64,000 nucleotides of DNA from Macrostomum lignano (lineage: Eukaryota): positions 104,803 through 168,802 of the forward strand of contig NIVC01000877.1 in assembly GCA_002269645.1 (NCBI GenBank), in the 5' to 3' direction. The notes under the pieces were generated by a model that saw nothing but the letters and a program-made list of their open reading frames with translations, did no database searches and was not told where the DNA came from. The position numbers and the translations under genes were made by a program. Numbering within the stretch: the stretch's first letter is position 1; every line of letters starts with the position of its first letter. This document shows positions 9,982 through 26,748 of the stretch, in pieces.

Positions 9982-10085
9982 AATAGTATACGTTTTTTTG
10001 ACACAAAGCCGATTTCCTTATGGCGAAATACATAGTAAGTACAGGCCCAAAAAATGGCAGAGTCTGAAATTTGCCGTGCACGCAA
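9982..10085 (+). repeat. Left terminal inverted repeat
   Basis: About 100 bp matching the reverse complement of about 26640-26742, with only a few substitutions or indels. Confidence 0.95.
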
Positions 10086-10318
10086 ACTAGCTTTTACGCA
10101 ATGAATTAACCAATTAGCTGAATCACTTTTACGCAAACACCTGTCTATCCACCTAAATTCTATCCGCAATGAATGCTGCTAATTACAAGCCCAACCAAAA
10201 TTCAATTTGACACAAAGCTTATTTCGCGTATAACTTAACGCATTTAAATTCTTCTTTTCAAGCAGTATTGTATATTTCAACTAGATACAAACACAATTTG
10301 ACGCACAAATTAGCGAGT

Positions 10319-10882
10319 CTACAAATATTGAGGCAGCACTCGTAAAACAAAATTGCGTAATTTACCATACAAGTATCGAAACGAACCAGTGCGAATTATA
10401 TTCCGTTTAAAAACGCTTCTAATAAAACACTCTAGGTTTCCTCTGGTAGTCAACTTATGAAAAATATAAAAAATTACCCAAAATCCACAACTTCCACTCT
10501 GTGGGTCTTGGATAGCAAAGCGACTATAACACCAATTTTTCGAATTTTCACATTCTTTTCCTAGCCATTTTGCTATTCTTGGCAATGGTAGTAGACCAAG
10601 AGAATCAAAATATTCACCAAGTCGTTTGCTACCGCGACCTGCTCGATGACCATAAACCCAAACGCATACCCAATGTTTTCCGGGCAGGTTGGAGACGTCA
10701 GTATTAACGATAAAAAAATAGTCTTTACCGTCTAAAGGTAAGCGTCTAAGTCCACCAACAAAGTTTTGAGGAAAAACACCAAGAAATACAACATTTAAAA
10801 AATGTGCGCACAATTTCGATACAACATTGCGAAGGAAGCGATCTGTTACACCACGATCTAGGATAGAATCAATTACTTCCAT
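10319..10882 (-). CDS. Adenain-like (Ulp1/adenoviral-type) cysteine maturation protease
   Basis: NTDVSNLPGKHW (His), YFDSLG (Asp), QDPQSGSCG (Gln, Cys): intact catalytic set in the order typical of Polinton proteases. Confidence 0.92.
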   Translation of the reverse strand: MEVIDSILDRGVTDRFLRNVVSKLCAHFLNVVFLGVFPQNFVGGLRRLPLDGKDYFFIVNTDVSNLPGKHWVCVWVYGHRAGRGSKRLGEYFDSLGLLPLPRIAKWLGKECENSKNWCYSRFAIQDPQSGSCGFWVIFYIFHKLTTRGNLECFIRSVFKRNIIRTGSFRYLYGKLRNFVLRVLPQYL

Positions 10883-12194
10883 ACTGTGCCAGGAACAATG
10901 TCGCGAAGTTCAGTCAGTTGCAGTTGCTTGTCAAATATACCTCCAAATATGACGTTGTACACGGTACTAGTTGCAGCATTGAAGCGTAACTCTAGTTTTA
11001 CATTTCCTTCCTTATACAGTTGCACTCCCCGTCCGACACCAGGTTCACTTCCAAGACTGAATGCAAAAATTGAGTAACCATTGGCGTAATCCAGCATATT
11101 AAATCCAATATCTCGTCCCTGTAGATAGATTCCAAGCTGTTGTAGCAAAAAATTATACTCTGTCACACAATCATCTCCAAAGTTTGTCTGCAGCGGACGC
11201 GATGGTACCGAGTCTCCATTCACAAACACACCAATGCTGCTCACATTTGCATGCTCAAAGTTGAACGGATTTGTGTCCATGCTTCCATTGAATGCCTTGT
11301 TGCTTACGATTGCCATCAATAAAAGCCGTGGTACCCCACTAGGAAACAAATTTTCATGCGTATGGCTAGACGATCCTCGGGTATAGTAAACGTACCAAGG
11401 CTTAGACTTCGGTGCGGATATAATGCATTGTGACTTTTAAGTCCATGAGCATGTGCACTGATAACACTCGGCGAGGGTTGAACAAACCGCAATCGTAGTT
11501 CTGCACGCAAAAACTTGATCTCATAGTCTTTTAAAACCGCACCAGCTTCTAATGTTGACCCGCTCAGGACAAATTTACTTTTTGCCGGTATGAGCTTGAT
11601 CCGTAGTGGTGTCTTTGATAGTAGATACCGAGGCTGACGAAACAAATCCAAGAATAACGGCCCCGATACAGTGCACCGCCTATTGTTAGCAATGAGCGCC
11701 TGCCTCTTTGTTCGTCCATCGTTTTCACTTGTTGCATTCATTTTACCAGCTGTATCCTTGTAAAACCCCCACGGCAGTAAACCAGCCTTCTGAGCTGTAT
11801 GTCCATATTCCAGTAATGTAAGAAGCATAGCCTTGTATGGATACATAAAACTACCACCTTCAACTACAGTATCGCCAATAGTAAATTGAACGTCCTCAAA
11901 CAATGTTCCAATAACCAAATTATTCAAACAAACAAAATTTTTCGTTGCATCTATAGGTTCACCTTCACTATCACTAACGCTGAAGCATACCGTGAGCACA
12001 GTTTCTTGTAGATCCAAATACAAATCGCCTGCAGGCACAACTTCAAATTCGATAGGTGATCCTTTTGTAATACCATGTTGCGGTTGAATGTTAGTATATC
12101 GATTATCCAAAACACTAAACTGAACAGGACTTTGATCAAATAGCGACAATTCACTTTTAAGAGCAGCAATATCAGGTCCAAGCAAATGGTTCAT
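10873..12194 (-). pseudogene. Duplicate major capsid protein gene with a 1-bp frameshift
   Basis: Appears identical to 12706-14028 except G4 to G3 at about 11379-11381, which splits it into the 296-aa and 158-aa ORFs. Confidence 0.85.
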
Positions 12195-12195
12195 G

Positions 12196-12654
12196 CTACT
12201 TTTCAAACAGACTAAAAAGTTTCTTGCTTGCAGTAGCAGTTCGACGTTTTCCTATACCACCGGTCTTCTTGCGTTTTCTTTTGTTCACGCGTCCCTTTCC
12301 ACACTGTCTTGTTCGTCGTTTCTTTTGCCGTTTCTTCTTTCCTAAGCTTATAGCCACTCCACTGGTTCTTTTCCTTCGCTTTGGTCTCGAAACTGCAGTT
12401 GTATTAAACATCTCTTCGCTCGATTCTGTGTCCAAGTGACGCTTCCGACCCATACCAATTTTTGCTGTCGCACTTTTCAAATACTCCAGACCACGATCCA
12501 AGAAATCTTTCTTTGCGTTGCGTAGTACAGGATACACCAATCTGTCCGCCAAATTTGACAAAAAACCGTAACCTTCGTAAACAGGAATGCCATATCCACC
12601 TCCACCTTCAGCAGATCTATTCGGACCAGAATAAAAAGCAAAAATAGGATCCAT
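12196..12654 (-). CDS. Duplicate of the Arg/Lys-rich putative core protein
   Basis: Same translation as 14030-14488; part of the tandem duplication. Confidence 0.7.
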   Translation of the reverse strand: MDPIFAFYSGPNRSAEGGGGYGIPVYEGYGFLSNLADRLVYPVLRNAKKDFLDRGLEYLKSATAKIGMGRKRHLDTESSEEMFNTTAVSRPKRRKRTSGVAISLGKKKRQKKRRTRQCGKGRVNKRKRKKTGGIGKRRTATASKKLFSLFEK

Positions 12655-12705
12655 TTCAACAGTCTTCTCTTCGTCATGTTACACCACGATCTAGGATAGA
12701 ATCAA

Positions 12706-14028
12706 TTACTTCCATACTGTGCCAGGAACAATGTCGCGAAGTTCAGTCAGTTGCAGTTGCTTGTCAAATATACCTCCAAATATGACGTTGTACACGGTAC
12801 TAGTTGCAGCATTGAAGCGTAACTCTAGTTTTACATTTCCTTCCTTATACAGTTGCACTCCCCGTCCGACACCAGGTTCACTTCCAAGACTGAATGCAAA
12901 AATTGAGTAACCATTGGCGTAATCCAGCATATTAAATCCAATATCTCGTCCCTGTAGATAGATTCCAAGCTGTTGTAGCAAAAAATTATACTCTGTCACA
13001 CAATCATCTCCAAAGTTTGTCTGCAGCGGACGCGATGGTACCGAGTCTCCATTCACAAACACACCAATGCTGCTCACATTTGCATGCTCAAAGTTGAACG
13101 GATTTGTGTCCATGCTTCCATTGAATGCCTTGTTGCTTACGATTGCCATCAATAAAAGCCGTGGTACCCCACTAGGAAACAAATTTTCATGCGTATGGCT
13201 AGACGATCCTCGGGGTATAGTAAACGTACCAAGGCTTAGACTTCGGTGCGGATATAATGCATTGTGACTTTTAAGTCCATGAGCATGTGCACTGATAACA
13301 CTCGGCGAGGGTTGAACAAACCGCAATCGTAGTTCTGCACGCAAAAACTTGATCTCATAGTCTTTTAAAACCGCACCAGCTTCTAATGTTGACCCGCTCA
13401 GGACAAATTTACTTTTTGCCGGTATGAGCTTGATCCGTAGTGGTGTCTTTGATAGTAGATACCGAGGCTGACGAAACAAATCCAAGAATAACGGCCCCGA
13501 TACAGTGCACCGCCTATTGTTAGCAATGAGCGCCTGCCTCTTTGTTCGTCCATCGTTTTCACTTGTTGCATTCATTTTACCAGCTGTATCCTTGTAAAAC
13601 CCCCACGGCAGTAAACCAGCCTTCTGAGCTGTATGTCCATATTCCAGTAATGTAAGAAGCATAGCCTTGTATGGATACATAAAACTACCACCTTCAACTA
13701 CAGTATCGCCAATAGTAAATTGAACGTCCTCAAACAATGTTCCAATAACCAAATTATTCAAACAAACAAAATTTTTCGTTGCATCTATAGGTTCACCTTC
13801 ACTATCACTAACGCTGAAGCATACCGTGAGCACAGTTTCTTGTAGATCCAAATACAAATCGCCTGCAGGCACAACTTCAAATTCGATAGGTGATCCTTTT
13901 GTAATACCATGTTGCGGTTGAATGTTAGTATATCGATTATCCAAAACACTAAACTGAACAGGACTTTGATCAAATAGCGACAATTCACTTTTAAGAGCAG
14001 CAATATCAGGTCCAAGCAAATGGTTCAT
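12706..14028 (-). CDS. Double jelly-roll major capsid protein (Polinton PY / hexon-like), about 440 aa
   Basis: Size, position next to the protease, and the motifs SELSLF, IEFEV, PYKAML and AFNGSMDTNPFNFEH typical of Polinton MCPs. First ATG at 14028 (the track uses an alternative start at 14040). Confidence 0.9.
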   Translation of the reverse strand: MNHLLGPDIAALKSELSLFDQSPVQFSVLDNRYTNIQPQHGITKGSPIEFEVVPAGDLYLDLQETVLTVCFSVSDSEGEPIDATKNFVCLNNLVIGTLFEDVQFTIGDTVVEGGSFMYPYKAMLLTLLEYGHTAQKAGLLPWGFYKDTAGKMNATSENDGRTKRQALIANNRRCTVSGPLFLDLFRQPRYLLSKTPLRIKLIPAKSKFVLSGSTLEAGAVLKDYEIKFLRAELRLRFVQPSPSVISAHAHGLKSHNALYPHRSLSLGTFTIPRGSSSHTHENLFPSGVPRLLLMAIVSNKAFNGSMDTNPFNFEHANVSSIGVFVNGDSVPSRPLQTNFGDDCVTEYNFLLQQLGIYLQGRDIGFNMLDYANGYSIFAFSLGSEPGVGRGVQLYKEGNVKLELRFNAATSTVYNVIFGGIFDKQLQLTELRDIVPGTVWK

Positions 14029-14029
14029 G

Positions 14030-14488
14030 CTACTTTTCAAACAGACTAAAAAGTTTCTTGCTTGCAGTAGCAGTTCGACGTTTTCCTATACCACCGGTCT
14101 TCTTGCGTTTTCTTTTGTTCACGCGTCCCTTTCCACACTGTCTTGTTCGTCGTTTCTTTTGCCGTTTCTTCTTTCCTAAGCTTATAGCCACTCCACTGGT
14201 TCTTTTCCTTCGCTTTGGTCTCGAAACTGCAGTTGTATTAAACATCTCTTCGCTCGATTCTGTGTCCAAGTGACGCTTCCGACCCATACCAATTTTTGCT
14301 GTCGCACTTTTCAAATACTCCAGACCACGATCCAAGAAATCTTTCTTTGCGTTGCGTAGTACAGGATACACCAATCTGTCCGCCAAATTTGACAAAAAAC
14401 CGTAACCTTCGTAAACAGGAATGCCATATCCACCTCCACCTTCAGCAGATCTATTCGGACCAGAATAAAAAGCAAAAATAGGATCCAT
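14030..14488 (-). CDS. Basic putative DNA-condensing core protein
   Basis: 152 aa. N-terminal GYG motifs and amphipathic helix, K/R-rich C-terminal half (RPKRRKR, KKKRQKKRR, KRKRKK). Immediately upstream of the MCP. Confidence 0.65.
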   Translation of the reverse strand: MDPIFAFYSGPNRSAEGGGGYGIPVYEGYGFLSNLADRLVYPVLRNAKKDFLDRGLEYLKSATAKIGMGRKRHLDTESSEEMFNTTAVSRPKRRKRTSGVAISLGKKKRQKKRRTRQCGKGRVNKRKRKKTGGIGKRRTATASKKLFSLFEK

Positions 14489-14529
14489 TTCAACAGTCTT
14501 CTCTTCGTCATGCAATCCCAATTCATGTG

Positions 14530-15690
14530 TTACTTATACACTTTAGAAAATAGTTTAGCAGTCTTTGCGTCAAGATCATTTTCGTTTAACCACTGACTTC
14601 TTGAGATTGGCATACCTTTCCATTTTACTAGATACAGACGACTTCCATTTTTCGCTCGATCAGTTTCAATAACTTTTTCAATTTCATTAGGTGTTTCATC
14701 TGTCTCGTTTACCAACATTAGTTCCGCTTGGTTAAACCTTCCTTTCAGCACTTCAAATCCATCTTCAGGGTCCACTAATTCGTACATTGGCGGGTCTGTC
14801 AAGTGTACACGATGAATGCGATATTTTGAATTACTCCAAGTCGTAGTGTATCCTTTTTCAAATGTTCCTCGACGTCGTGTAATTCTAACCCAATCACCAA
14901 CTTTAAATTTATTCTCATTCTTTTTAGTGTACGACTTCGCAAACATTTTGTCCCACAAAATTCCTTGTAAATGCGGGTCTGTCTCTACCCGTTTTGGTGT
15001 TTCTCCACTCAAGGATCGATGAGGACTAGAGTTGAAATTATCTTCCAATTGCGGTAAAATGTCAAACCATCGAGGTAAATTTTTTGCTCGAAAGTATCGT
15101 AATAGACGTTCCTTTAACGAGCGGATAAATCGTTCAGCCATGCTTGCCTTGTAATTGCTTTGGCTAACAAAAAATCGAACTCCTTCCTGTTTCAGCATTT
15201 GACGTGTAGCTCTTCCGAGAAACTCCATACCAGCATCACCTTGTAAATAAACAGGCTTAAAACCACTTCGAAAAATCTCTAGTAATACTTGACTAACTTC
15301 TGAAGGCTTCTTTGTACGCAATGGTCTTAGTCGTACAACTCTAGTAAAACAGTCGATAAGAACAAGTATGTAACGATAACCTCGATTTTCCGTCTTGTAT
15401 TGAGGTAAATCTGCCAAATCGATTTGAAACTGAAACTTTGCAACTGGTGGCACACTAATTTTTGGAGTTGGAAAGTTTCGTCGTGTTTTTCGAAATAAAT
15501 GATGCTCATTTGTTGATCGCACCCAATTATCAACTTCGCGCTTTGCAACTTTGTTCGTAATCTGTGGAAACTTTTTACGTACTTCACGAACAAGTATAGT
15601 CTTGTTACCACTAAATGAAGTAGGCCTGTTCAAGTTAAAAAAAGCATCCGTCAAAAATTCTTCAATTTCCTTACGCACTCGCTTCATCAT
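14530..15690 (-). CDS. Retroviral-type (RVE) DDE integrase with C-terminal chromodomain
   Basis: FQIDLADL (D), LQGDAGMEF (D), AERFIRSLK (E), FKVGDWVRI, FEKGY, and the chromo-like IEKVI...YLVKWKG...QWL. Consistent with the 6-bp TSD. Confidence 0.95.
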   Translation of the reverse strand: MMKRVRKEIEEFLTDAFFNLNRPTSFSGNKTILVREVRKKFPQITNKVAKREVDNWVRSTNEHHLFRKTRRNFPTPKISVPPVAKFQFQIDLADLPQYKTENRGYRYILVLIDCFTRVVRLRPLRTKKPSEVSQVLLEIFRSGFKPVYLQGDAGMEFLGRATRQMLKQEGVRFFVSQSNYKASMAERFIRSLKERLLRYFRAKNLPRWFDILPQLEDNFNSSPHRSLSGETPKRVETDPHLQGILWDKMFAKSYTKKNENKFKVGDWVRITRRRGTFEKGYTTTWSNSKYRIHRVHLTDPPMYELVDPEDGFEVLKGRFNQAELMLVNETDETPNEIEKVIETDRAKNGSRLYLVKWKGMPISRSQWLNENDLDAKTAKLFSKVYK

Positions 15691-15859
15691 CAGTTAGATT
15701 GATGCTAGTCGTTTGACAGTTGCAACAAAAGAACGAAGCCTCGATCGAATCTCCGTCAGTATCCTCGTTGTGCTCCTTTCCCAGAAACGGCACACATTCA
15801 GATTTTATGCAAAAAAACTCACAGAGACGAATCAAAAGTTTTTGGAAGATAGATGACAT
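15671..15859 (-). CDS. Small Cys-rich hypothetical protein (62 aa)
   Basis: ATG start, TATAAGC box 64 nt upstream, overlaps the integrase start. No recognisable family. Confidence 0.35.
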   Translation of the reverse strand: MSSIFQKLLIRLCEFFCIKSECVPFLGKEHNEDTDGDSIEASFFCCNCQTTSINLTDDEASA

Positions 15860-15971
15860 GGTTTGTCTTATTAAACTATATATTTTTCATAAACAAAAAA
15901 TTAACCTTTTTAAAAAGCTTATAGTGCTCGAATCAATTTTGTTAAAACGTAATCTGTAATTTTAAAACAAC

Positions 15972-16661
15972 TTAATTCAGTGTTTGATAATTTTCAAACA
16001 GACTAAGATCCTCCTTTGCAACAGTTTTTGGAGCAGACATTAGCTCGTTTCGTACATGACGCCCGATTTGGTTTGCTGCGATTCCACGTTTTCGAAGAAA
16101 GTCTAAAAATGTTTTTAGTCCACTAGGCGGTTGAGTCTCGTGTCGCTTAAGCGGTCTGTCTCGAACAACATATTCCATGAGATCTTGTATCTCGGCATCA
16201 GTCAAATTAGCCAGCATTGGTTCTGCATTCTTGTCCATGTCCGAAAATAGGTTTTGAGCGAGAGCTTCGAAACGTGGTAAAAAAACTTTAGGAATTTCCC
16301 TTGATTCGCTGGCATATGAACTTCTTACAGTAGTCCCTTTGCGAACAAGTGACAGATTGTCCTCGTCTCCAGTGCGATAGACTTTGCGCAATTTTAAAAG
16401 TTTGTCTTCCAATCTGCTTCGTTTCAATTGAGCTGTGTAATTTGGCTCCTTTTCCATTTCCTTGTCCAAGTTATCCATTTGGTCTCTCATTTCCACCATA
16501 TTTTTTGCCAGAGCATCTTGCGGTGCGTCTAAAACTTCAGTTTTTCGAGGTGTCTCAGCAGTTGGTGACGATCCTTGCTCTGCACCTTGACATGCAGATT
16601 GATACACAGATTCAGGTACTAGATACATTCGTTGAAAACTACTACTCTCGTTAGTTCGCAT
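15972..16661 (-). CDS. Polinton hypothetical protein (229 aa, predicted helical/coiled coil)
   Basis: Tightly packed ORF in the virion module. RMYLVP resembles the N-terminal motif of unannotated Polinton ORFs as I recall them. Confidence 0.7.
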   Translation of the reverse strand: MRTNESSSFQRMYLVPESVYQSACQGAEQGSSPTAETPRKTEVLDAPQDALAKNMVEMRDQMDNLDKEMEKEPNYTAQLKRSRLEDKLLKLRKVYRTGDEDNLSLVRKGTTVRSSYASESREIPKVFLPRFEALAQNLFSDMDKNAEPMLANLTDAEIQDLMEYVVRDRPLKRHETQPPSGLKTFLDFLRKRGIAANQIGRHVRNELMSAPKTVAKEDLSLFENYQTLN

Positions 16662-16671
16662 TATATTCCTA

Positions 16672-17100
16672 CTACTTTCGTTGAATTGATCGTATTAAAT
16701 TCGCTGCTCCCGCGGCGGTACCAACTACTCCAGACGTTATCCCAAGCGCAGTGCTTATAGCAGGTAGAGCGGCAATAATTGGAGCCAAAAAAGGTAAAAA
16801 TCCTCCGTGTTGGACAAGTATTTTCCTTTTTGCAGTAATTGGAGTCTTCTGTTCCAAAAGCTGGCGTATATATCTGCGATGCTTCTCAAGTCGTCTTTTG
16901 TTACAGTTACTAATTTTAATACGTCCACTAATAATATTAAACAGAAAGTCTACTAGACATCGTATCTCCGACTCTGAAAGTGTTTGTAAAAAACTTTTTC
17001 TCTGCTTTGGATGCTTTAGCCGATAAACAATTTGTAGTAAAAAAGCACACTGACACAATGAGCGAGCATTTTGTTTTCCTTTTTCTGTTAGTTCGCTCAT
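16672..17100 (-). CDS. Putative membrane-active virion protein with C-terminal amphipathic peptide (GGFLPFLAPIIAAL...)
   Basis: Basic middle region, then QHGG-FLPFLAPIIAALPAISTALG. Similar GGFL-tail proteins recur in Polintons/adintoviruses (from memory). Confidence 0.7.
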   Translation of the reverse strand: MSELTEKGKQNARSLCQCAFLLQIVYRLKHPKQRKSFLQTLSESEIRCLVDFLFNIISGRIKISNCNKRRLEKHRRYIRQLLEQKTPITAKRKILVQHGGFLPFLAPIIAALPAISTALGITSGVVGTAAGAANLIRSIQRK

Positions 17101-17156
17101 TCTTACAAAACAAATTCACAAAATTTTCTATTACACAATTAATCTTTGCTTATAAA

Positions 17157-18146
17157 TTAGTCCGACCTATGTTTAAAATGCAGTACGACAACAACGTGTG
17201 CTCCCGGATCAAAATTAAACGGTTTTCCGCGCTGGTCCGATAGTCGAATCGAAATCTCGTGAATTTGTTGTCGATTTGTTTTCAAGTAGTAGGGTGTTTG
17301 CAATGCACTGCTATCGCGTATAAGTTCTCCGTTTTTCTTTTGTTGGAGTTCCACAACTCGAAGCAACGGTACTGATGTACTTCCCACTGCTTGATACTCG
17401 ATTATATCTGTGTAACAGTACATGTAAACCGTTTTACTAGGCATCGGAGAAGGTAGCACAGCATCCAAGTAGGTTTTGTTAATGCGCCAAACACGATTTC
17501 TCAACCAATATTGGTGTACTTTGATGTACACTTCTCCTTCCGTTTTTCGAAGATAGTCTCCATGCGAAACAAGTCGTATAGCTTCACCAGGCGATAGAAC
17601 ACAATAAAAAACATAATAGTTCTCAGGTACTAGCGCTAGAGTATTGTCGAGACTTTTTATCAAATCCAAGTATGAACCATCCGGTGGTTGTACACTACCA
17701 GCGGCAGGTTTTGATAATTTTTCCGAGACAAGTCCAGAAAGTTTCTTCCAAGAGTCAAATTTGAAAGCGTCCATAAATGTAACTGGTAGTTCTAATCCAA
17801 TAGTTTTTTCGCCTGAATTTCGTAAAAGCCAGGCAAATTTTTCATCTGTACCAGACGGTTGCCAGGAAACGTAAGCATCCAAGTCTGCCTCTGCCCAAAC
17901 ACGACCCCAATAGTTTTTCTTTAATCGTATTATTGAGTCAATGTCCGCAAAATATGGAACTTCAAATCGACGCTCACGATGAGCATTTGGCGTCGTAATT
18001 GCTCCATGGCACAGTAATTCAACTAGTGCAACCTCGAAGAATCCGTTCAATAAATTTATTGGTTCAGTTAGTCGCACTCGAAATTCATTAGGCGAGTTGG
18101 TTTCGTAACTGATATCGTTTGACGGCAAAAAAACGTAAAAACTCAT
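17157..18146 (-). CDS. Minor capsid protein / penton (Polinton PX)
   Basis: N-terminal FYVFLPSN...NEFRVRL..PINL..GFFEVALVE and C-terminal MYCYTDIIEYQAVG...PLLRVV...ISIRLSDQ...F: the penton signature. Confidence 0.88.
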   Translation of the reverse strand: MSFYVFLPSNDISYETNSPNEFRVRLTEPINLLNGFFEVALVELLCHGAITTPNAHRERRFEVPYFADIDSIIRLKKNYWGRVWAEADLDAYVSWQPSGTDEKFAWLLRNSGEKTIGLELPVTFMDAFKFDSWKKLSGLVSEKLSKPAAGSVQPPDGSYLDLIKSLDNTLALVPENYYVFYCVLSPGEAIRLVSHGDYLRKTEGEVYIKVHQYWLRNRVWRINKTYLDAVLPSPMPSKTVYMYCYTDIIEYQAVGSTSVPLLRVVELQQKKNGELIRDSSALQTPYYLKTNRQQIHEISIRLSDQRGKPFNFDPGAHVVVVLHFKHRSD

Positions 18147-18181
18147 TTTGAAATAAAACACAAACTAATATTGACAACAGT

Positions 18182-18898
18182 TTATAATTTGCTTATAATA
18201 ATATTACACAAACTTTGCATCACATTCACGAGTATAGACAACTTGTTCATCACCAGAAATATTCCTGTTCTCAATCGTAAAAAATCTGGTGTCACTTGCC
18301 GCAGGTCAATGAATAAATATGAAAAAGGTTTGTTATTTGTTGCGTCTTCATACACATTCACTAGAAACCTACTATTACGCGGATACATTTGTCGACCGAG
18401 ATGTTCAACTGTGGTTCGATCGCGCACACTACGAGTTAGACAAATATAACTAGCTGATAAACTTCGCATGCGTGCTTCTGGATCAGACTTGTTAAAAAGA
18501 CCTTGACAAAGGTACAGACAAGTCAAAGGGATATGATGCGCATGCTTTGTAAACATACTAGTAAATTCTGGCAACTTAGCAATCTCGCTTTGCAAGTCGT
18601 CAACAACAACCAAATCGTGTGGTAAAAAACGATTAATCATCTGTGGTGTGAATTCGGGTACAAAAACAATAGGGTCAAGACCGCTTTTTTGCCAGCATGT
18701 TCTAATTCGTTGTTGATCGTCTGGTTTCAAACTTGATCCATGGCACCAAACAAGACGGCACGGTTTTTTATCAAATAATTCTTTTCGTTCAGTCAACAAA
18801 CGCAACGTCCATTCAGTTTTACCCGAGTTTGAAGGTCCAGCAATAATAAATGTAGAATCGTGAGCTAGTTGCATATTGTATGGCTGCTGCATTTTCAA
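18182..18898 (-). CDS. A32/FtsK-like genome packaging ATPase
   Basis: Walker A GPSNSGKT, Walker B LVVVDD, plus FTKHAHH, LCQ, NKPFSYLFIDL. Confidence 0.93.
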   Translation of the reverse strand: MKMQQPYNMQLAHDSTFIIAGPSNSGKTEWTLRLLTERKELFDKKPCRLVWCHGSSLKPDDQQRIRTCWQKSGLDPIVFVPEFTPQMINRFLPHDLVVVDDLQSEIAKLPEFTSMFTKHAHHIPLTCLYLCQGLFNKSDPEARMRSLSASYICLTRSVRDRTTVEHLGRQMYPRNSRFLVNVYEDATNNKPFSYLFIDLRQVTPDFLRLRTGIFLVMNKLSILVNVMQSLCNIIISKL

Positions 18899-19338
18899 GC
18901 ACCAAAGCGTTGCTTAACTTGCATAACCTTGGTAACCAACTTCGCAGCTAGTTTTTCTTTCCAACCAGTAGACGGATCGTGGGCAATCTCTCGTGCACCA
19001 GATTCTAATAGCTTATCAGCTTTTAACCTCTCTTGCACGTCAGAATTTTTATCATAGGCCACGTCGTGAAGCATGCACAAATTGTCAAGCCGATTAATTC
19101 CTCGTTGTCCTTTTGCTAGCCTAGCTTGCAGTTGCGTACCTGGACCACAAAACTGATATCCGCCGGGTAAATGTGCTTCAAATGGTAAATGATTAATTAA
19201 CCAATTTACGACACCATAACCTTGTTGCTTTTTATTAATCTTTCTAATAGATTTCTTCTTTTTACGAATGCTCTTCTTTTTCTTTTTAAAACCTCGATCT
19301 TTCGCTGGAGACATTTTTACAACATATATTTTAGGCAT
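18895..19338 (-). CDS. Parvovirus-type phospholipase A2 domain protein (PLA2X-like)
   Basis: YQFCGPGT (Ca-binding loop) and NRLDNLCMLHDVAY (His-Asp), preceded by a Lys-rich N-terminus. The likely start may be the second ATG at 19314. Confidence 0.88.
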   Translation of the reverse strand: MPKIYVVKMSPAKDRGFKKKKKSIRKKKKSIRKINKKQQGYGVVNWLINHLPFEAHLPGGYQFCGPGTQLQARLAKGQRGINRLDNLCMLHDVAYDKNSDVQERLKADKLLESGAREIAHDPSTGWKEKLAAKLVTKVMQVKQRFGA

Positions 19339-19429
19339 AAATTTTTAAAATTGCTTATAGTATTTACAAAGCTCTCGCATAGTGCACCAATCACCAAAGA
19401 AAAAAATCAGTTTATTATTATTATTATAC

Positions 19430-19912
19430 TTATTGGCCAGTGCTGCCAAAGCCGCCAAAGCCGCGCCGCTTGGTCGGCGGCTCAATCATCCGAATCGAAT
19501 TGTCTGCTTCAGTCACATAGACTGAAGCAAGCACGGCCTGCTCCAGAACCAGTTGTGCAATACTGAGCCCGGCATAGTACTCAAAGTCTTCCGGACTGTA
19601 ATTAAACAAGACTATACAGATTTCACCAGTATAGTCGGGGTCGATTACGCCACCGCCAACAAATAAGCTGTGCAGAGCCATGCTGGAACGTCCCGCTATC
19701 CTGCCATAGGTACCAGGCGGTAAGCGAATTTTGAGTCCGGTTCGCACACTCCGGGACTCGTAGGCCGGAATGGTACCATCGACGCCAGCGCAAAGATCAT
19801 ACCCGATCGACCCGACAGTTTTTCGGGTCGGAATCGTTGCCGAATCGTATAGACGTTCAACTAAAAGCTTACGATCAGTTAGTTGTTGTTGCTGCTGCTG
19901 CTCGGGATTCAT
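19430..19912 (-). CDS. dut: dUTPase
   Basis: All five trimeric dUTPase motifs: GSIGYDL, GRIAGRSS, GVIDPDYTGEI, IAQLV, RGFGGFGSTG. ATG taken at 19912. Confidence 0.95.
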   Translation of the reverse strand: MNPEQQQQQQLTDRKLLVERLYDSATIPTRKTVGSIGYDLCAGVDGTIPAYESRSVRTGLKIRLPPGTYGRIAGRSSMALHSLFVGGGVIDPDYTGEICIVLFNYSPEDFEYYAGLSIAQLVLEQAVLASVYVTEADNSIRMIEPPTKRRGFGGFGSTGQ

Positions 19913-20209
19913 GTCGATTCTTGTAGCTGAAAGTTTAAAAAAAAGTTTTTTTTCTTGAAACATGAACGATAGCACTACATTTACGTCTACTACAAACACA
20001 AGCTTAGTCTTGAGAATCTAACTATAAAAAATATACTTTTTCAAATAATTAAACACAAAAAAGTGCTAAAATTATAATTTAAACGAATGCCGGTATCATT
20101 TATTTATTGTAAATAATGATCAATGAAAAAATTAATGATGGGTTACAGTCTTCTATAGCATGCTATTACTTTGTACAACAAAAGAGATCAGAGCATATTG
20201 TTAATTAAT

Positions 20210-20535
20210 TAGCCAAGTGCCAGTGTCCAAAGGGTAGCGAATTAATTGAACTTGTCCAGGATCGCTTCGTATCGAAGAAGCTTAGTGCAAGTTTTCTTTG
20301 TTGCATCAAAAAAAACTTTCTGTTTTCGAGAACGAATGGACTGCATGCGCGAAAACACAAGTTGTCGCTTGTGTAAGACTCTTAAATAGTCTTGATGCTT
20401 TAAACTGCTCTGTGCGGCTTTAGAAGCAGTACTGCTCCAGCTTTGCGACCGATTGAGACTGGAACTTTAAACGATTGCTGCTTAACCAGACCGGACCGGA
20501 CTGGACCGGACCGGACTGGACCGGACTCCCCGCGC

Positions 20536-20567
<32 letters not shown>

Positions 20568-21302
20568 ACCACCACCGCCGCCACCACCACCACCACCACC
20601 GCCGCCACCACCACCACTGCCGCCGCCCGCCCCCACACCACCGTGGGACGTATTTGTTGACAGTGTGCTTGCATGGCTTTTGCGATAAACGCAGAGCATC
20701 AAGTCTAGCTGCTCGATTGCTCTATATTGCCAATTACTACCTCGAGATTGAAAATTGTCAATTTTTATTAACAACTGATTAATAACGCGTGCGAACCAGT
20801 CATTGTAGGCCTCGGGAGATAACAGCATGTCACTGTTTGCAATCGTCTCATCAAATGATATTGTCGCAATGTTGGTATTAAAATAGACCGAAATGATCTC
20901 TTCGCTGCTCGAGCCATCGTTGTCGTCTGCTGCTGTTTTCGGTCGAAATAGTGTCACTTTCAAGTGAAAGCAGACTCTTATTAATAAACTGGGTGAGCCA
21001 ATTTTTTCCAATATTTTAAATATTGGTTCTCTTAAAGACGCAATCAACTCGCCAGGAAGTAACTCGCCAGAGCTGTTGCCTTGTTGTTCAAGAGTGGGAG
21101 TAAATTCGACAAAATTTACCCGACCACGATGAGCTGACTCGCGCAAAGCGATGGACCACCCATCTGGTGGGTTTTCGATCAGGTTTTGCAGCGATCCGGT
21201 CAGTAATCGTTGCGGTGAAAAACAAGCACCATGCGAGTGAGCATGCAGCTCGGCTTGATTACTGAACTTTTTTCTGCAGATTTGGCATTGTGCACGCGGC
21301 AT
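20210..21302 (-). pseudogene. C2H2 zinc-finger ORF resembling the N-terminal part of Polinton pPolB polyproteins, truncated
   Basis: CQICRKKF..ELHAH finger; YFNT; KIDNFQSRGSNWQYRAI; VPVSIGRKAGAVLLLK. After two in-frame stops comes SDNLCF. No exonuclease or polymerase motifs follow. Contains a poly-Gly microsatellite. Confidence 0.55.
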
Positions 21303-21524
21303 TGTGTGCACCTAGCTCGACAACGAGCGTATCGAGCATAATATTAATAGATGATCCGGTTTGTCATTTGCGGCTGTAAGAAAAATGATGATTTGGTTAG
21401 TTATAGGTATAGCTGACACGTTTACTATTAGAGAAAACAATTGGTAAATAAATGAAAACAAGACAAAATGTTTAAAAGAATGCATCGCAACTGCGATTTG
21501 ACAGCAATTGTTTACTTGTTAAGT

Positions 21525-22082
21525 TTAGTTATTAACAGAGATTAAAAAATCCTTGACATGGTTAAGAATATTATTCAATTCATGAGTGTTTTGAACGCCC
21601 ATAATAACAAACTTTTTCGAAAAAAATATGTTACAAAAAAGCCTTGGTTTTGATGCTGATCTAACAGAAACTGCTTGTGGGAAATTTTCTGCATCGTATC
21701 CAACCAGATAATTCGAATAGTAGCCTGCATATCTTTTTAGACTAGAGAAACCGAATTTTGGCCAAAGATGACCAATAAAGCCGACATAGGTACTGCTCTG
21801 AATTTTTACTGAATCAAAATCTACACAATTAATAGTGTCGTTGATAAATCGTAAAACTGAGACTATCTGAGAATTTGATTTACAGCCATATATAGTTAGT
21901 TTTCCTGCTGGATAAAGTTGGATTTTAGCATTTGAATAAATTGTCTTTAGCATTGTTGGTCGGCTTAGGAATAGTTTGCAAAACCGGTTTCTGGTCTGTA
22001 GCTTCTGTTTGGTCTGCTTTAAATCAAATTTTTCAAACGGGTGCAGCTTCAGACTCGCAGTAACTATTAATAGGACAAGTCG
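21525..22082 (-). CDS. Divergent TATA-binding-protein-like protein
   Basis: Two TBP-repeat matches by eye: AKIQLYPAGKLTIYGCKS ~ TALIFSSGKMVCTGAKS; DFDSVKIQS ~ FLDFKIQN; YDAENFPQ ~ YEPELFPG; KPRLFCNIFFSKKFVIMG ~ KPRIVLLIFVSGKVVLTG. The frame stays open 43 codons upstream of the ATG at 21953, up to a pyrimidine tract plus AG. Confidence 0.75.
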   Translation of the reverse strand, partial: RLVLLIVTASLKLHPFEKFDLKQTKQKLQTRNRFCKLFLSRPTMLKTIYSNAKIQLYPAGKLTIYGCKSNSQIVSVLRFINDTINCVDFDSVKIQSSTYVGFIGHLWPKFGFSSLKRYAGYYSNYLVGYDAENFPQAVSVRSASKPRLFCNIFFSKKFVIMGVQNTHELNNILNHVKDFLISVNN

Positions 22083-22292
22083 CTAAAACGGAAAATAAAT
22101 AATAAGAAAAGTTAAACATGACTATACTATCGTAAATTCTAATATTAAATTACAAAACCTGGTTAGCGTACAAGGAGTAGCAAAAAATGTTTTGAGCTTT
22201 TCCCTAAAAAATAATATTTCCCTAGCCAAAAATTTGATAAATATAGTGGAATAAGTTAGTTAAAACTTGGATAAAATTAGTCAAAAATTTTG

Positions 22293-23491
22293 TTACTCAT
22301 CATCAGAGCTGCTGTACGAGTCGTCCGATGAAGACACGCTAGCTGTAGTAGCGTCCGCAGCAGCACGCTTTAAAAATGCTGTCTCCTTGGACGCTACCCT
22401 GGTTCCAGAGGCAGGTGTACTCACCAAGATCTTTGCTGGTGGAGCCTCCACCCAGTCTGTGCCATCTGCACCAGCTTCGGCAGAATTGTTTTGCTGTTTT
22501 GCACCGCTGCGTTTTCGAACTTGCTTTTTAGGCGGCGGTTCAATAGAGGCTGGCGCTGCATTCGATGTAGTCGACTTCTTCGATACGGTGGTGGTAGACC
22601 GACGCTTTGCAGGTGACTTGGCAGGTGTCACCTGGCTTGAATTCTGCAGGCTTTGTTCATTTGCTTCTTCTTGCTCACAGGTAGATGTTGGGGACGGACT
22701 CCTGCTTCTAATTGCTGACTTGGTCGCGGGTAGGTGTGCAAGCACTCCCTTGAACATGTCGAGGCGCTGCAACATGTTGTCGGAAGATTCTATGAGTGTC
22801 AGAGAGCGCACAGCGAATGTAATGCGCCAGACGAGGCAGCCTTTTGGACAATACAAGCTCGTTGCTTGCACTGTCATTTGGTAGGTACCGCTGACACCTT
22901 TGAAATCGGAAATGGACACCTCCTTCCCGTGTGGATGATCGTTGCTGATCCTGATTGTGGCACAAGGGTAAGCAGGCTTTATAGCCAGCCATTGTTGAGG
23001 CACAAACTCGAGGACGTCGTTAGCATGCTGATGAGCTGGTTTTGTTAGTCGTGCCAAGGGTCGAGCATCTTGAATCTCGTTCAACTTGACCGATAGACCT
23101 TTTTCGACTTGACTGCAAAACATTATATAAATTATGAATATAGTTTCCTAAAATTAATTGTATAAATTTAATATGGTGCTCACCGGAGAGAGTGGAAGAG
23201 TTCCTTATCGCAGCTGTCTGGATGAAATTGGACACTTACTGCGTCGCGAGAGTCGTGTCTGCAAGACGGATGATCGAGCTCTGGCCTTTCTGCGATTCCA
23301 CGAAAAAGCTCCATTGGAGCCTTGGTTTGCAATATAATTGGGTACCATTTTGTACACTCGATTGATGGTTTCCACGCAATAGATCGAAACTGGCAGGACG
23401 AACCAGTCGTGGTTGTAGACTGCTCTCCAACGTAAAAAATCGGACTCGAGTCGGAGCGTACAATTGACTCCGTCTTGATGCAAGCTGCCAT
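22293..23491 (-). CDS. Spliced 375-aa protein, putative OB-fold ssDNA-binding protein (exons 23491-23184 and 23112-22293)
   Basis: 71-bp GTGAGC...TTTTGCAG intron joins two track ORFs in frame (FHSL-R-QVEK). Beta-strand-rich core, low-complexity linker, acidic tail SSSDDSYSSSDDE. TATAAATA at 23570-23577. The gene structure is well supported; the SSB function is inferred. Confidence 0.65.
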
Positions 23492-24179
23492 GTCTTACAA
23501 GCAATTGAATATAGTATTTCTTTTGCTGTAATGATTGAGCTCATGAAAAATTGACCATTTCGGGTCTTGTATTTATAGCAAGCATTGCATGCTGTTTGTG
23601 AACTAGTAAACAAATTTAATTGTTGCGTGCTGATTAAGACATTGTTGCGTGCCAAAGGTGGCATAAGTTTCTAGGGTGGGTTGCATGATTAGGTCTAATT
23701 TTACGCAAATGTAGGTTGATATTTTATAAAATAAAATTAATGAATCTTAGGCACACTAGTTATAAATTTGCAAGAGTAACACGATGGCAAGCGTTTAATA
23801 AGAAGACTGCTGGTTGCTGCTTCATTAGATTGGTTTTGTTCTCAAGTAGAATGTAATTAAAATATTTTGCGACTTGAAAAATTAGCAATCTTGGATTTTA
23901 GAGTAAAAATAAGCTGCACGCGGTGCTATGAAATTAATTTATTGAAAGTTTTGCTTGCATGTTGGAATTTTTTAGCTCGCACGGTGACAAGAGATTGCTT
24001 GAGTAACCTATATATAGAGTGTTACTTTTCAAACAGAAAAAGGTATAGTTGTAACTCAGCTTTTGCAGTCCTATATTGAGCAGAAGCTATATAGAGTTAC
24101 ACTATCATGCTGCGACGCGCAGCTTGTTGGGACTATAATGACTGCCGCTGCTATAACCGCATGCAGTCAGTGCAGTTGA

Positions 24180-25070
24180 CACACAAATGCTGTTTGGACT
24201 AAGCTAAATTACTGTGTTGAGACAGTTAAGCTGGACCACGGCTAAATCACTATTGATACGGTTAATTGCTACTAGACCCATGGCTAAATCACTGTACGTT
24301 GAGACGGTTAAGCTGGACCACGACTAAATCGCTGTACGTTGAGACGGTGGTTAAGCTGGACCATGGTTATAAAACTGGACGGGTGGTTAAGCTGGACGAC
24401 TACAGCTAAAATTACTGTTGAGTCAGTTATGCTAGACCACAGCAGCCAAATCACAGTTGAGGTAAAGCTGACCATAGCTAATTCTCACTGTTGAGACGGG
24501 TGCTGCTGCTTGGCTCACAGCTAAATAACTGGACAGTTAAGCTAATCGGACTACAGCTAAATCCCTGTTGAGACAGTTGCCTGGACCACAGCTAAAATCA
24601 CTGTTGAGGCAGTTAAGTCTGGACAACAGCTAAAATTACTGTTGAGACAGTTAAGCCTTGACTATAGCTAAATCATCGTTGAGGTAGTTAAGCCTGGACT
24701 ATAGCTAAATCACTGTTGATGCAGTTTTAAGCTAGACCACAGCTAAATCATACTGCTGAGGCAAAAAAGCCGGACCACGGCTAAAAACTGTTGAGGCAAA
24801 AGCTGGACCACAGCTAAATCATACTGTTGAGGCAAAAGCTGGACCACAGCTAAATCATACTGTTGAGGCAAAAGCTGGACCACAGCTAAATCATACTGTT
24901 GAGGCAAAAGCTGGACCACAGCTAAATCATACTGTTGAGGCAAAAGCTGGACCACAGCTAAATCATACTGTTGAGGCAAAAGCTGGACCACAGCTAAATC
25001 ATACTGTTGAGGCAAAAGCTGGACCACAGCTAAATCATACTGTTGAGGCAAAAGCCAGACCATGGCTAAA
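24180..25070. repeat. 36-bp tandem array inside the Polinton (CTGGACCACAGCTAAATCATACTGTTGAGGCAAAAG)
   Basis: 7 perfect units at 24803-25054, preceded by progressively degenerate units back to about 24180. Confidence 0.92.
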
Positions 25071-25317
25071 GAAACGTATGAAAAAAAATTATTTGCATGG
25101 ATTAATAATTTTTGTTTAATGATGACTGTACAAGATATTGACTTTATATTGAATTAAATAATTTCAATGAATGGTGAATAAAATTGAAAGAATTTTTAGA
25201 ATAATGAATTTATAGAGATTATATTATTGATTACAGACTTGTTTGATATATACTAAAAGAGCAATTACTTGACACATTGCTGGCAAAATTTTATGAAGAG
25301 TTAGAAAAAATGTCTTT

Positions 25318-26179
25318 TTAAGATAGGTCCCAATATTCAAATACTTGAGTTGTATTACAGGTCTTTGCTAATTCTACTTGGTAGAAGCCTGTGCTCATTT
25401 GAGAGACTTTTACAGACTTGATGTCCTTCTGTACAATAATTGGCGAGTTTAGCAGCGGTTGAACTTGGGTAGAAATAGCAATTGATGATGATGGTGTTTC
25501 AGTTGCTGTCGTTGGTTTGGTACTTGTAGGCTTACTGCAAGTTTGCTTTGTTGGGTCATTGTAGCTGGTTGGTGATGGTGGTGGTGGTGCATACTGCAGT
25601 TGGTCAGTTGGTCGTGGGTTCGATTGCTGCCTAATTGACTGAATAACATCAGTTCTTGTGTAAATGCGATCTAGCTCAGTTGTCTGTCTCTCGACATGAA
25701 TCGAGGTTACTCTGGCGAGAGATGTAGAATATGATGCTCTTGCAGCAGAATTGGATGTGGTGGTGTCGTGGCAAATGCGTTTGCACTGATCTGGAGGTGG
25801 CCGCGTGAAGAAACCATTCTTGAATGCTATAATAATGGATAAGATGAGGGAAATTTGGTATAGGTGCATGTATACAATGTATATAGAAACTGAACTAGCA
25901 GAGAATCAGTCTAAACAGAAACCGAACTAGCAGACAATCAATCTAGAAATTCTGAACTAGCAGAGTATTAGTCTAAACAGAAACCAAACTAGCAGACAAT
26001 CAATCTAGAGACTGAACAAACAGAGGATCGGTCTAAACAGAAACCGAACTAACAATCAATCTAGAAACTAAACTATAGCGAACAGTCAATCTAAAAAAGA
26101 AAACTGAACTAGAGTAGGTGATTATCTTACCTTGTTTAACATAGCGCTCGGCCAATTCCTGCTGACGTGATCGCTTCAT
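25318..26179 (-). CDS. Spliced 185-aa hypothetical protein (exons 26179-26131 and 25826-25318)
   Basis: ATG AAG CGA...AAA CAA G|GTAAGA donor and CCATTATTATAG|CA acceptor give the in-frame sequence MKRSRQQELAERYVKQAFKNGFF. P/T/S-rich middle region. Confidence 0.55.
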
Positions 26180-26574
26180 TTCACTTAAGATGTAAGTATA
26201 GTTGAACAAGTAGTATAATGTAAACTTGGTTTAAGTTATTTAATATTTTCTGTGTCAGTGTGTTCGTATATATATATATATAGTATAAAGAAGAAGCATG
26301 TTGACGCAGTTGTTGACATAGTATCTGTAAACCATCTGCTCAAGTTGGTGCAAAAATTCTTTAGGCACTCAAGAATAGATCATTTACTATCTTTCTTCAA
26401 AAGGGTGATAATATTCACAAGTTTTCAATATTTCAATAACACTTGAAATGTGTGAATAGCTTTGGAGTAAATTTGTCTTGAATGGAATCCTTTGAAGTGT
26501 GTTTGTGTCACCATTGCTAGAATCGGTTACTTGTATTTTGGACAGGTGGATATGCAATTCGTCTGAATAATCAC

Positions 26575-26742: not shown

Positions 26743-26748
26743 GGCAGA

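Follow-up and report, generated by a model that had tools for sequence, protein, structure and literature searches.

A conserved TATAAG(C/T) box as likely late promoter of virion genes in a Macrostomum lignano Polinton that encodes a TBP-like protein

The motif TATAAG(C/T) was found before most virion genes of a Polinton in the genome of Macrostomum lignano, and it is likely a late promoter of TATA type placed about 40-65 nt upstream of these genes. From its sequence context a promoter role is very probable, and we favor, with reasonable confidence, the TBP-like protein of the element as the factor that reads the box. Because the box is kept across diverged sister elements and is replaced where the versions of the TBP-like protein differ, it is likely that the element provides the promoter reader that turns on its late genes. 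The window refers here to the whole stretch of DNA that was analyzed (64,000 nt of contig NIVC01000877.1).

The element that carries the boxes is a Polinton whose polymerase is truncated and which has a gene with the TBP fold. It shares with Polintons/Mavericks (adintoviruses, MELD viruses) the TIRs, the 6-bp duplication, the integrase and a PLA2-like gene, and it has putative counterparts of their pPolB, ATPase, protease, and major and minor capsid genes. Both the TIRs and the 6-bp target-site duplication that characterize the group were present, as was an integrase of retroviral type (Pfam rve and Chromo). The place of the family B polymerase is occupied by an N-terminal fragment in the window and by a 1411-aa ORF in the sister copy C1136, which by its motifs we take to be the protein-primed polymerase. 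The candidate capsid module (MCP, penton, packaging ATPase, adenain protease) consisted of ORFs whose size and order are those expected; they have relatives in 22 metagenome loci, and their Pfam matches were weak or absent. The features of the element are the following:

9982..26742, minus strand: Polinton/Maverick element, deletion derivative with truncated pPolB
9984-10054 and 26670-26740: TIR arms, 99% complementary
9976-9981 and 26743-26748: target-site duplication of 6 bp, GGCAGA
22293..23123, minus strand: SSB-like ORF of the early block, no Pfam match of its own, SSB label from the first-pass annotation
21525..22082, minus strand: TBP-like gene (Pfam PF00352, E 2.3e-7)
20400..21302, minus strand: N-terminal fragment of putative protein-primed DNA polymerase, 90% identical to the start of the 1411-aa ORF of C1136, remainder deleted
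19430..19963, minus strand: dUTPase (Pfam PF00692, E 1.5e-29)
18895..19314, minus strand: PLA2-like virion protein (Pfam PF08398, E 3.4e-9), matching ATG start in sister C1136
18182..18892, minus strand: packaging ATPase, from Walker motifs and position, no Pfam match above cut-off
17157..18146, minus strand: penton/minor capsid protein, from position and family features, no Pfam match
16672..17100, minus strand: PX-like core protein, adenovirus mu/protein X-like (Pfam Adeno_PX, E 2.3e-6)
15972..16661, minus strand: 229-aa ORF with no assigned function, conserved across families
15671..15859, minus strand: 62-aa Cys-rich ORF, counterparts in families B2, B4 and B5
14530..15690, minus strand: retroviral-type integrase with chromodomain (Pfam rve, E 4.5e-8; Chromo, E 1e-6)
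14030..14488, minus strand: basic core protein, from composition and position
12706..14028, minus strand: major capsid protein (MCP), from size and position, no Pfam match
10873..12654, minus strand: tandem duplicate of core and MCP genes, second MCP split into two frames
10319..10882, minus strand: adenain-like maturation protease (weak Pfam Peptidase_C5, E 0.044)

The names penton (17157..18146) and MCP (12706..14028) are in part presumed, from known features of the family and of Polintons, respectively. The C-terminal end of the ATPase in the window copy was unlike that of most sister copies. The core and MCP duplication spans 1.83 kb and its junction was present too in contigs of runs X14 and X5. 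In family D, the positional counterpart of the SSB-like ORF matched PC4 (E 8e-5).

The boxes were compared among five sister families (A, B1, B2, B4, and B5), whose ATPases are 63-68% identical:

19353..19359, minus strand: TATAAGC, 45 nt before the PLA2-like ATG at 19314; exact in 4/5 families, TATATGC in the fifth
18191..18197, minus strand: TATAAGC, 51 nt before the penton ATG; 5/5 families, at 43-54 nt
17148..17154, minus strand: TATAAGC, 54 nt before the PX-like ATG; 5/5 families
16753..16759, minus strand: TATAAGC within the PX-like frame and 98 nt ahead of the 229-aa ORF; 1/5 families, none in the four B families
15917..15923, minus strand: TATAAGC, 64 nt ahead of the small Cys-rich ORF, itself upstream of the integrase; exact in 4/5, TATATGC in B1
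14532..14538, minus strand: TATAAGT, 50 nt before the core-protein ATG, over the last integrase codons; exact in 4/5, TTTAAGT in B4
14180..14186, minus strand: TATAAGC in the core-protein coding sequence, 158 nt before the MCP ATG; 5/5 families, at 124-165 nt
12346..12352, minus strand: second occurrence of the pre-MCP box, within the tandem duplicate
23570..23577, minus strand: canonical TATAAATA, candidate early promoter

The first-pass annotation had listed six of these boxes on the minus strand; their coordinates and their distances to the ATGs (45, 51, 54, 64, 50, and 158 nt) were all exact, whereas the sites at 16753-16759 and 12346-12352 had been overlooked. The former is family-specific and may be due to chance. 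The first-pass statement that the boxes lie in or at the gaps between genes does not apply to all of them: the site at 14532-14538 overlaps the integrase end, the one at 18191-18197 overlaps the end of the ATPase frame, and the one at 14180-14186 is inside the core gene. The association with virion genes was retained for most of them, but not for every one, since the ATPase and the protease carry no exact box in the window copy; across the five families an exact box preceded the ATPase in 1/5, the 229-aa ORF in 1/5 and the protease in 0/5. The canonical TATAAATA attributed to the SSB-like gene is indeed present, at 454 nt from the first ATG of that frame; an ORF further upstream, which may be the first exon of this gene, is 86 nt away from it. 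Canonical or near-canonical boxes occurred 450-660 nt before the SSB-like frame in 5/5 families.

TATAAG[CT] was exact in 27 of the 30 orthologous slots of the five families and the other three held one-base A/T variants, the swaps falling at positions 2 and 5; the flanks of the box were near random among the same families (identity 0.25-0.43). The site within the core coding sequence kept the same codon phase (xxT ATA AGC) in 5/5 families, with a codon-usage product of 2e-6 over four families. In the 7.3-kb virion block of the sister copy C4064, seven sense boxes and one antisense box were counted vs. 0.91 expected from an order-2 Markov model (P 5e-5), and TATAAGC was the top-ranked 7-mer in an unbiased count; the early block of this copy contained none, and no TATAAG(C/T) box was found in the early blocks of any of the five families. 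Upstream windows, 25 in total, contained 22 boxes vs. 0.46 expected from an AT-matched background. The conserved sequence and spacing of the box, together with the canonical boxes that early genes carry, gave strong support to the promoter reading and to the early/late split proposed at first pass. The frequent location of the box at or just beyond a stop codon would also suit a signal of the preceding gene for 3'-end formation, termination or RNA processing, an explanation to which we give hardly any weight, as the box is kept in coding sequence around 120-165 nt before the core-gene stop, its spacing is linked to the next ATG, and it is missing after the last gene (protease), where AATAAA is found in B1, B2, B4, and B5.

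Box-to-ATG distances were 32-56 nt in 42 of 80 cases and below 32 nt in 8 of 80, with a lower edge near 32 nt. Upstream ATGs occurred 9-35 nt past several boxes, and no initiator consensus appeared 21-42 nt after the box in 29 aligned sites. As far as can be judged from the letters, this spacing fits a TATA element at -30. TAAG is contained in two box classes, those of A/B and D/F, and the first-pass annotation had mentioned the TAAG late motif of baculoviruses; in baculoviruses a viral polymerase reads this motif as an initiator, and late promoters shared with the helper are known from virophages. An initiator of this kind, or a site for the polymerase of a helper virus, with transcription starting inside the box, is nevertheless very unlikely for the Polinton. 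TAAG is not invariant: TATATGC occupied 2 of the 30 orthologous slots, and ATAAAC or ATGCAAA, which lack TAAG, were the boxes of other clades. Moreover, a start inside the box would take in the upstream ATGs mentioned above, and both the variants and the lower edge of the distances fit a -30 element instead, so that the analogy with baculoviruses was not upheld. Contigs of four runs assumed to be RNA displayed no joints, start pile-ups or leader sequences over 12700-20450, and were uninformative either way.

The TBP-like gene holds both repeats in one open frame of 185 aa that starts upstream of its first ATG (21953), at an acceptor-like TTT(T/C)AG conserved in A, B1, B2, B4, and B5; an upstream exon is possible. 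The two-repeat saddle fold (PF00352) was recognized by Pfam above cut-off over two stretches. The structure model reached a pLDDT of 95.7, with host TBP included in the input alignment, and superimposed on TBP (VIA) with Z 16.3 and rmsd 2.6 over 166 aligned residues. A search for homologous proteins with the viral alignment returned two proteins. The canonical set of four intercalating Phe and two Asn/Thr pairs on the DNA face was incomplete (F99 to P, F116 to Y, N69 to L, N159 to S, T124 to Y, and T215 to M; yeast numbering, assigned by motif), and F190, P191, and F207 were kept. Altered DNA-binding faces on a TBP fold are also found in TRF2/TBPL1, TBPL2 and ASFV B263R, the latter an NCLDV TBP-like protein; TRF2 has lost most intercalating phenylalanines, whereas F190 and F207 persist in the Polinton protein, and no RNA polymerase is encoded by the Polinton elements in the stretches examined. 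In all 34 viral rows the equivalents of E186/E188 were acidic (D/E and E, respectively) and F190 was kept; in TBP, the E186/E188 residues form the acidic stirrup that binds TFIIB. Gln occupied the L114 position in 12/12 rows with a G6-C7 box, and Arg at V122 together with Asn at V71 occurred in 12/12 rows labelled ATAAAC, host TBP being canonical at all of these positions. In yeast TBP, positions L114, V122, and V71 are critical for DNA binding, and F116Y, V122R and loss of F99, R105, and R196 are DNA-binding nulls (PMC2265533 Table 1). Since all these changes occur among the viral proteins, the TBP-like protein might be devoid of DNA binding.

Other TBP-bearing Polinton clades, in this genome and in metagenomes, presented boxes of their own. 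YTTAAGAA was enriched in the D families (7 observed vs. 0.41 expected, and 7 vs. 0.30) and CTAYAAATA in the E family (7 vs. 0.12), with no cross-enrichment of these boxes in other clades, and the D and E families each contain a TBP-like ORF. YATAAAC was enriched in 8 of the 22 metagenome loci with at least three virion genes and TTAAGC in locus L116; the classes YAYGCAAA (L105 group) and TAAGA (L152, L168, and L172) did not reach significance at block level. In the metagenome loci, a variant box preceded 65/113 virion ORFs vs. 4/62 TBP-like ORFs and 9/113 antisense windows, with patterns defined on the same loci as those counted and with close relatives among them; canonical boxes preceded 19/62 TBP-like ORFs vs. 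10/113 virion ORFs. Two loci served as held-out predictions: L138 (Arg122) presented ATAAAC five times in sense and never in antisense, as raw counts, and L137, with a Gln114 TBP-like gene, presented no clear box. Despite the TBP-like ORF of family E, canonical TATAAATA made up 5/7 of its boxes.

Pairing of the box with the element's own TBP, as first proposed, was supported by correlation: every TBP-like clade combines a particular box with particular DNA-face residues. Box classes followed clades in both the TBP and the ATPase trees; the ATAAAC rows were grouped by the former and split by the latter, but the conflict was not significant (AU p 0.33), and co-evolution is for this reason not separated from descent. 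The same confounding, together with the fact that the candidate genes travel together in the families examined, would suit another sequence-specific factor of the element or the host (e.g., the PC4-like protein or the 229-aa ORF) reading the box, with the TBP-like gene merely co-inherited. We regard this as highly improbable given the TATA-like variation (A/T swaps at positions 2 and 5), the TATA-like distance, and locus L184, which has a PC4-like gene and no uniform box.

L184 was the single locus available as TBP-less control, no TBP-like gene being detected in it. At the same slots it displayed mixed TATA boxes, including TATAAGCA and TATAAACG; a uniform box was missing from this relative, and TATAAGC appeared once. 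Because TATAAGCA stands at these slots, host TBP may read a box of the TATAAGC type. On this basis the box could be a weak variant of TATA that host TBP recognizes, leaving the TBP-like protein another job, as a TRF2-like or decoy factor for TFIIB, NC2, Mot1, or TAF1, or as a repressor of early or host promoters. The loss of many canonical DNA-contact residues points the same way, and in vitro, cellular TBP can work with some non-consensus boxes (PMC2396422 section 10). We nonetheless hold this explanation to be unlikely: in the yeast assay, departures from the consensus did most harm at T3-A6 (PMC2396422), and the explanation does not account for the fixation of one particular non-consensus box per clade, for the avoidance of canonical boxes at virion slots while TBP and early genes use them, or for the conservation of the altered residues within each box class.

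Family H of G000 (two copies of 20 kb each) gave no TBP match (best E 1 or worse), and its genes have T/A runs directly at the ATG and no common box at 30-60 nt; being incomplete in sequence and of a distant type, it represents a contrast and not a control. Locus L185 was dropped as too distant. Among viral contigs, no relatives were found with the window MCP, the MCP alignment or the TBP-like alignment, and searches with the ATPase alignment gave two loci and then one.

The proposed Polinton pairing would work like the vTBP/TATT switch of herpesviruses, outside that family. With the beta/gamma-herpesvirus vTBPs (KSHV ORF24, EBV BcRF1, and HCMV UL87) it shares a viral TBP fold with a non-canonical TATA on structural genes and a canonical TATA on early genes (PMC7498053); use of host Pol II would be a further likeness. 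The same paper describes a requirement for at least six viral activators in herpesvirus late transcription and a distinct N-terminal domain by which vTBP binds the Pol II CTD. In contrast, the Polinton protein is a bare TBP core of ~180 aa; its sequence similarity is of the cellular type and its acidic TFIIB stirrup is intact. Its frame lacks the N-terminal CTD-binding domain of the large vTBP, there is no frame of herpesvirus vTBP size among the ORFs of the element, and a Pfam scan of 16 of these ORFs gave no match to the five further herpesvirus late activators. The motif, TATAAG(C/T) and not TATT, is altered mostly in its 3' half and in a clade-dependent manner. Literature searches agreed with the first-pass statement that no such system was known for Polintons/adintoviruses: in Starrett et al. 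(PMC8502044), "TBP" is a gene label in a figure legend and the word "promoter" does not occur, and no TBP or TATA-box passage was found in the other Polinton papers searched by term.

Taken together, the observed box and its conservation, its absence from early blocks, the TBP fold and the correlation of residues with boxes suggest a late switch, for which we infer where transcripts start, when they are made, and that the protein binds the box and recruits TFIIB. Canonical TATA boxes read by host TBP would drive the early block, made up of the SSB/PC4-like gene, pPolB and, through splicing, the TBP-like gene. The viral TBP-like protein would then bind the variant box; it has retained the C-terminal half, which would grip the 5' TATA, and its remodelled N-terminal half would accommodate G-C at positions 6-7, with halves assigned to bases as in TBP in general. 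Through the acidic stirrup it could recruit host TFIIB and Pol II, and transcripts would start around 30 nt downstream of each box, thus yielding several nested late mRNAs on which the ATPase, the 229-aa ORF and the integrase would be second genes.

Whether a widespread branch of animal Polintons carries in this way the smallest known viral late switch is a tentative proposal, for which we see slightly less than an even case. It would consist of a single TBP core that was captured and that works with neither a viral polymerase nor a partner complex; its DNA face would have been re-tuned several times so that each lineage reads its own TATA variant (Gln114 with G6-C7, Arg122/Asn71 with A6-C7). 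Several TBP-promoter pairs, insulated from one another, would then exist side by side in one host genome as a natural TBP recognition code. These proteins would be natural altered-specificity TBPs with predicted residue-to-base pairs and, if the reading is true, the vTBP strategy of herpesviruses would have arisen independently in a genome that is far smaller. The finding bears on the timing and the drive of capsid genes in elements that lack an RNA polymerase and for which no animal-Polinton promoter appeared in the papers searched. Selection on the boxes across many families is itself evidence of present or recent expression of the virion genes, and a box with its matching factor would provide a handle on whether and when Polintons act as viruses.

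The Polinton spanned positions 9982 to 26742 of the window, with TIRs and a 6-bp target duplication, and carried the following genes:

minus strand, SSB-like ORF, TBP-like ORF, truncated pPolB, dUTPase, PLA2-like protein
minus strand, ATPase, penton, PX-like protein, 229-aa ORF, 62-aa Cys-rich ORF
minus strand, integrase, core protein, MCP, protease

Its left non-coding arm contained a tandem repeat array of about 36-nt units (24200-25060) degenerating toward the early promoter. From their translations, we take the flanking host sequences to be a non-LTR reverse-transcriptase-like ORF (3563-5818), a short SOSS-C-like ORF (30149-30436) and TatD-like exons (33428-34125). Searching the genome with the ATPase gave 398 candidates, and 29 of the 150 scored had an ATPase at least 98% identical. 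Most copies shared the short TBP-to-ATPase spacing of the window copy, which was about 3 kb longer in three sister copies (C1136, C2373, and C84), and C1136 held a polymerase-sized ORF of 1411 aa. The polymerase-deleted derivative (window 20400-21302, and genome copies) retained every virion gene along with the TBP-like and SSB-like genes; judged by this spacing, it seems more numerous than its full-length sisters (about two dozen vs. three), as a defective element amplified in trans would be.

All six TATAAG(C/T) boxes that the first-pass annotation had placed on the minus strand were present on the sequence, and the distances claimed to the ATGs (45, 51, 54, 64, 50, and 158 nt) were exact; not all six lay in gaps, three of them overlapping coding sequence. 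Two further boxes occurred in the element:

16753-16759, minus strand, extra box inside the PX-like ORF
12346-12352, minus strand, extra box in the 1.83-kb core+MCP tandem duplication

The 20 matches in the window comprised eight minus-strand sites of the element, one antisense site in the penton gene, four scattered sites and seven minus-strand TATAAGC copies that belong to a tandem repeat of the host, beyond the ends of the element (28769-29552). The core+MCP duplication (10873-14512), whose second MCP is broken, is probably no assembly error, since its junction was also present in contigs of sequencing runs X14 and X5.

The motif proved enriched over background in the virion blocks of all five families compared, namely that of the window's Polinton (A; 7 sense-strand boxes vs. 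0.91 expected) and its sisters B1 (9 vs. 0.71), B2 (5 vs. 0.52), B4 (5 vs. 0.65), and B5 (6 vs. 0.47), B3 being excluded as too close to B2. Antisense boxes numbered one in A and none in each of the others, and the early blocks contained no box in any of the five. TATAAGC led the ranking of all 7-mers in A, B1, and B5; it came second in B4 and, behind repeats, sixth in B2. The exact box filled 27 of 30 slots upstream of orthologous genes (PLA2, penton, PX, small ORF, core, and MCP in five families), the slots being defined from family A and the small-ORF and PLA2 starts of the B families chosen with the box in view; the other three held TATATGC (twice) and TTTAAGT (once). The B-family small ORFs translate into related Cys-rich peptides. 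Identity of the box flanks between families was 0.25-0.43. The pre-MCP box lay inside the core gene and was read xxT ATA AGC in 5/5 families, with a codon-usage product of 2e-6 (four non-reference families, independence assumed). The exact box preceded the ATPase, the 229-aa ORF and the protease in 1/5, 1/5, and 0/5 families, and TATAAGG stood 134-140 nt upstream of the protease in 3/5. Several B-type copies were rearranged or broken up by other Polintons or repeats (L029-L030 on C4009, L020-L022 on C1391, and L023-L025 on C3589).

We consider a promoter role of the box highly probable. Box variants showed the A/T swaps seen in TATA boxes, here at positions 2 and 5, and one variant lacked TAAG. 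Among 80 box-to-ATG distances from 11 outside loci (nine distances from the relative L184), 42 were 32-56 nt and eight below 32 nt. ATGs often stood 9-35 nt past the box, ahead of the homologous start codon; transcripts beginning near +30 would bypass them. In C1136 the PLA2 frame starts at the ATG equivalent to 19314. No initiator consensus was seen downstream of the aligned boxes, and contigs of the sequencing runs carried no information on start sites. Reading the box as a 3'-end signal is argued against by its location inside coding sequence, well ahead of the stop, and by the lack of a box behind the last gene, a place at which four B families have AATAAA. The B1 dUTPase box (L094:8422) was TATATAAGC, canonical and variant in one, and is a candidate dual early/late promoter.

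The TBP-like frame matched PF00352, and its model (pLDDT 95.7, with host TBP part of the input alignment) matched TBP structures at Z 16.3, the first unrelated row scoring 8.5. Its first strand preceded the first ATG and followed an acceptor-like site common to five families, which makes splicing from an early transcript probable. In the B families a deoxynucleoside-kinase gene absent from family A followed the TBP-like gene (L015 on C362, L009 on C889, and L018 on C1680; Pfam dNK, E 3e-21), the two genes sharing one continuous frame in B4 and overlapping in B2/B3. TBP C-terminal repeats grip the 5' TATA and N-terminal repeats face the 3' bases. Compared with host TBP, canonical at these positions, the TBP-like protein retained the acidic stirrup as well as F190, P191, F207, and V213, and differed at N69, F99, L114, F116, V122, and T124 (yeast numbering, assigned by motif); if that geometry holds, the conserved half would lie over the conserved bases and the altered half over the altered G-C. 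The changed positions are DNA-binding-critical in yeast TBP according to Table 1 of PMC2265533. Some substitutions are null in yeast TBP, as would suit a non-binding decoy, which is possible.

Distant families of the same genome (D1, D2, E, and F; ATPase 34-40% identical) all had TBP-like ORFs, that of E being a weak match (E 3e-7 on our profile, no Pfam match), and no TATAAG[CT] in their virion blocks. Their boxes were YTTAAGAA in D1 and D2 (7 and 7 observed vs. 0.41 and 0.30 expected), TATAARAA/CATAAGAA in F (4 vs. 0.21) and CTAYAAATA in E (7 vs. 0.12), the last canonical at 5/7 sites. In D and F (L034, L049; L074) the TBP-like gene ended the virion block with its own late-type box 53-74 nt upstream, a layout that would permit positive feedback and was not shared by A/B or by most metagenome loci. 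A Polinton family with a very high copy number (L100-L103, on C274 and C326; at least 117 integrase matches at ≥90% identity), in which no TBP was detected, had T-runs and A-runs directly at the ATGs, a sequence arrangement that suggests another expression mode.

Of 105 metagenome hits to related TBP-like proteins, 80 were kept and 22 had at least three virion-module genes. YATAAAC was enriched in 8 of these 22. Enrichment was also seen for TAAGA-type boxes (L174) and, within upstream windows, for TTAAGC (L116). The YAYGCAAA class of the L105 group gave a weak signal, and no box was significant at block level in L137, L152, L168, or L172. Across the 71 metagenome loci with a usable TBP frame, variant boxes preceded 65/113 virion ORFs, 4/62 TBP-like ORFs and 9/113 antisense windows, and canonical boxes 19/62 TBP-like and 10/113 virion ORFs, counts whose significance is overstated because the patterns were defined on the same, often related, loci. 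Gln occupied the L114 position in 12/12 rows with G at box position 6 and C at 7, and also in L137, which had no clear box; Arg122 and Asn71 occurred in 12/12 rows labelled ATAAAC, four of them labelled by eye.

Box classes tracked clades in the TBP and ATPase trees alike; ATAAAC rows formed one supported clade by TBP and were split by ATPase, whose data did not reject their monophyly (P = 0.33). L184, the only TBP-less relative by HMM or profile comparison and possibly an incomplete locus, had five different boxes at its virion slots (TATATAAA, TATAAACG, TATAAAAC, TATATAAG, and TATAAGCA). This supported the promoter reading and the idea that uniformity goes with the TBP; TATAAGC also occurs there without a detected viral TBP. 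This last point, the mostly canonical box of family E and the agreement of box classes with clades speak against reading of the box by the element's own TBP. The early/late split proposed earlier agreed with box-free early blocks and canonical boxes on TBP-like ORFs. On balance, we consider it moderately probable that the element's own TBP-like protein reads TATAAG(C/T). Most likely, host TBP would start the early block at canonical TATA boxes, the viral protein would then read the box of its clade, its kept stirrup would recruit TFIIB and Pol II, and nested late transcripts would be driven from the box.

Such a switch would resemble in its working the vTBP/TATT system of beta/gamma-herpesviruses as described in PMC7498053, differing in its motif and in lacking a large vTBP. 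A figure legend in Starrett et al. (PMC8502044, preprint 10.1101/697771) names a TBP gene, and promoters are not mentioned in the text searched; term look-ups in PMC11161782, PMC11131425, 10.1101/2023.08.22.554363, PMC8097293, PMC11296320, PMC12220804, and two 2026 preprints gave no passage on TBP or a TATA box. The pairing was not described in the literature searched, subscription papers and supplements, perhaps with gene annotations, lying outside its scope. The contributions here are several distinct TBP-box pairs within one genome, synonymous-site constraint, a residue correlation and one TBP-less control.
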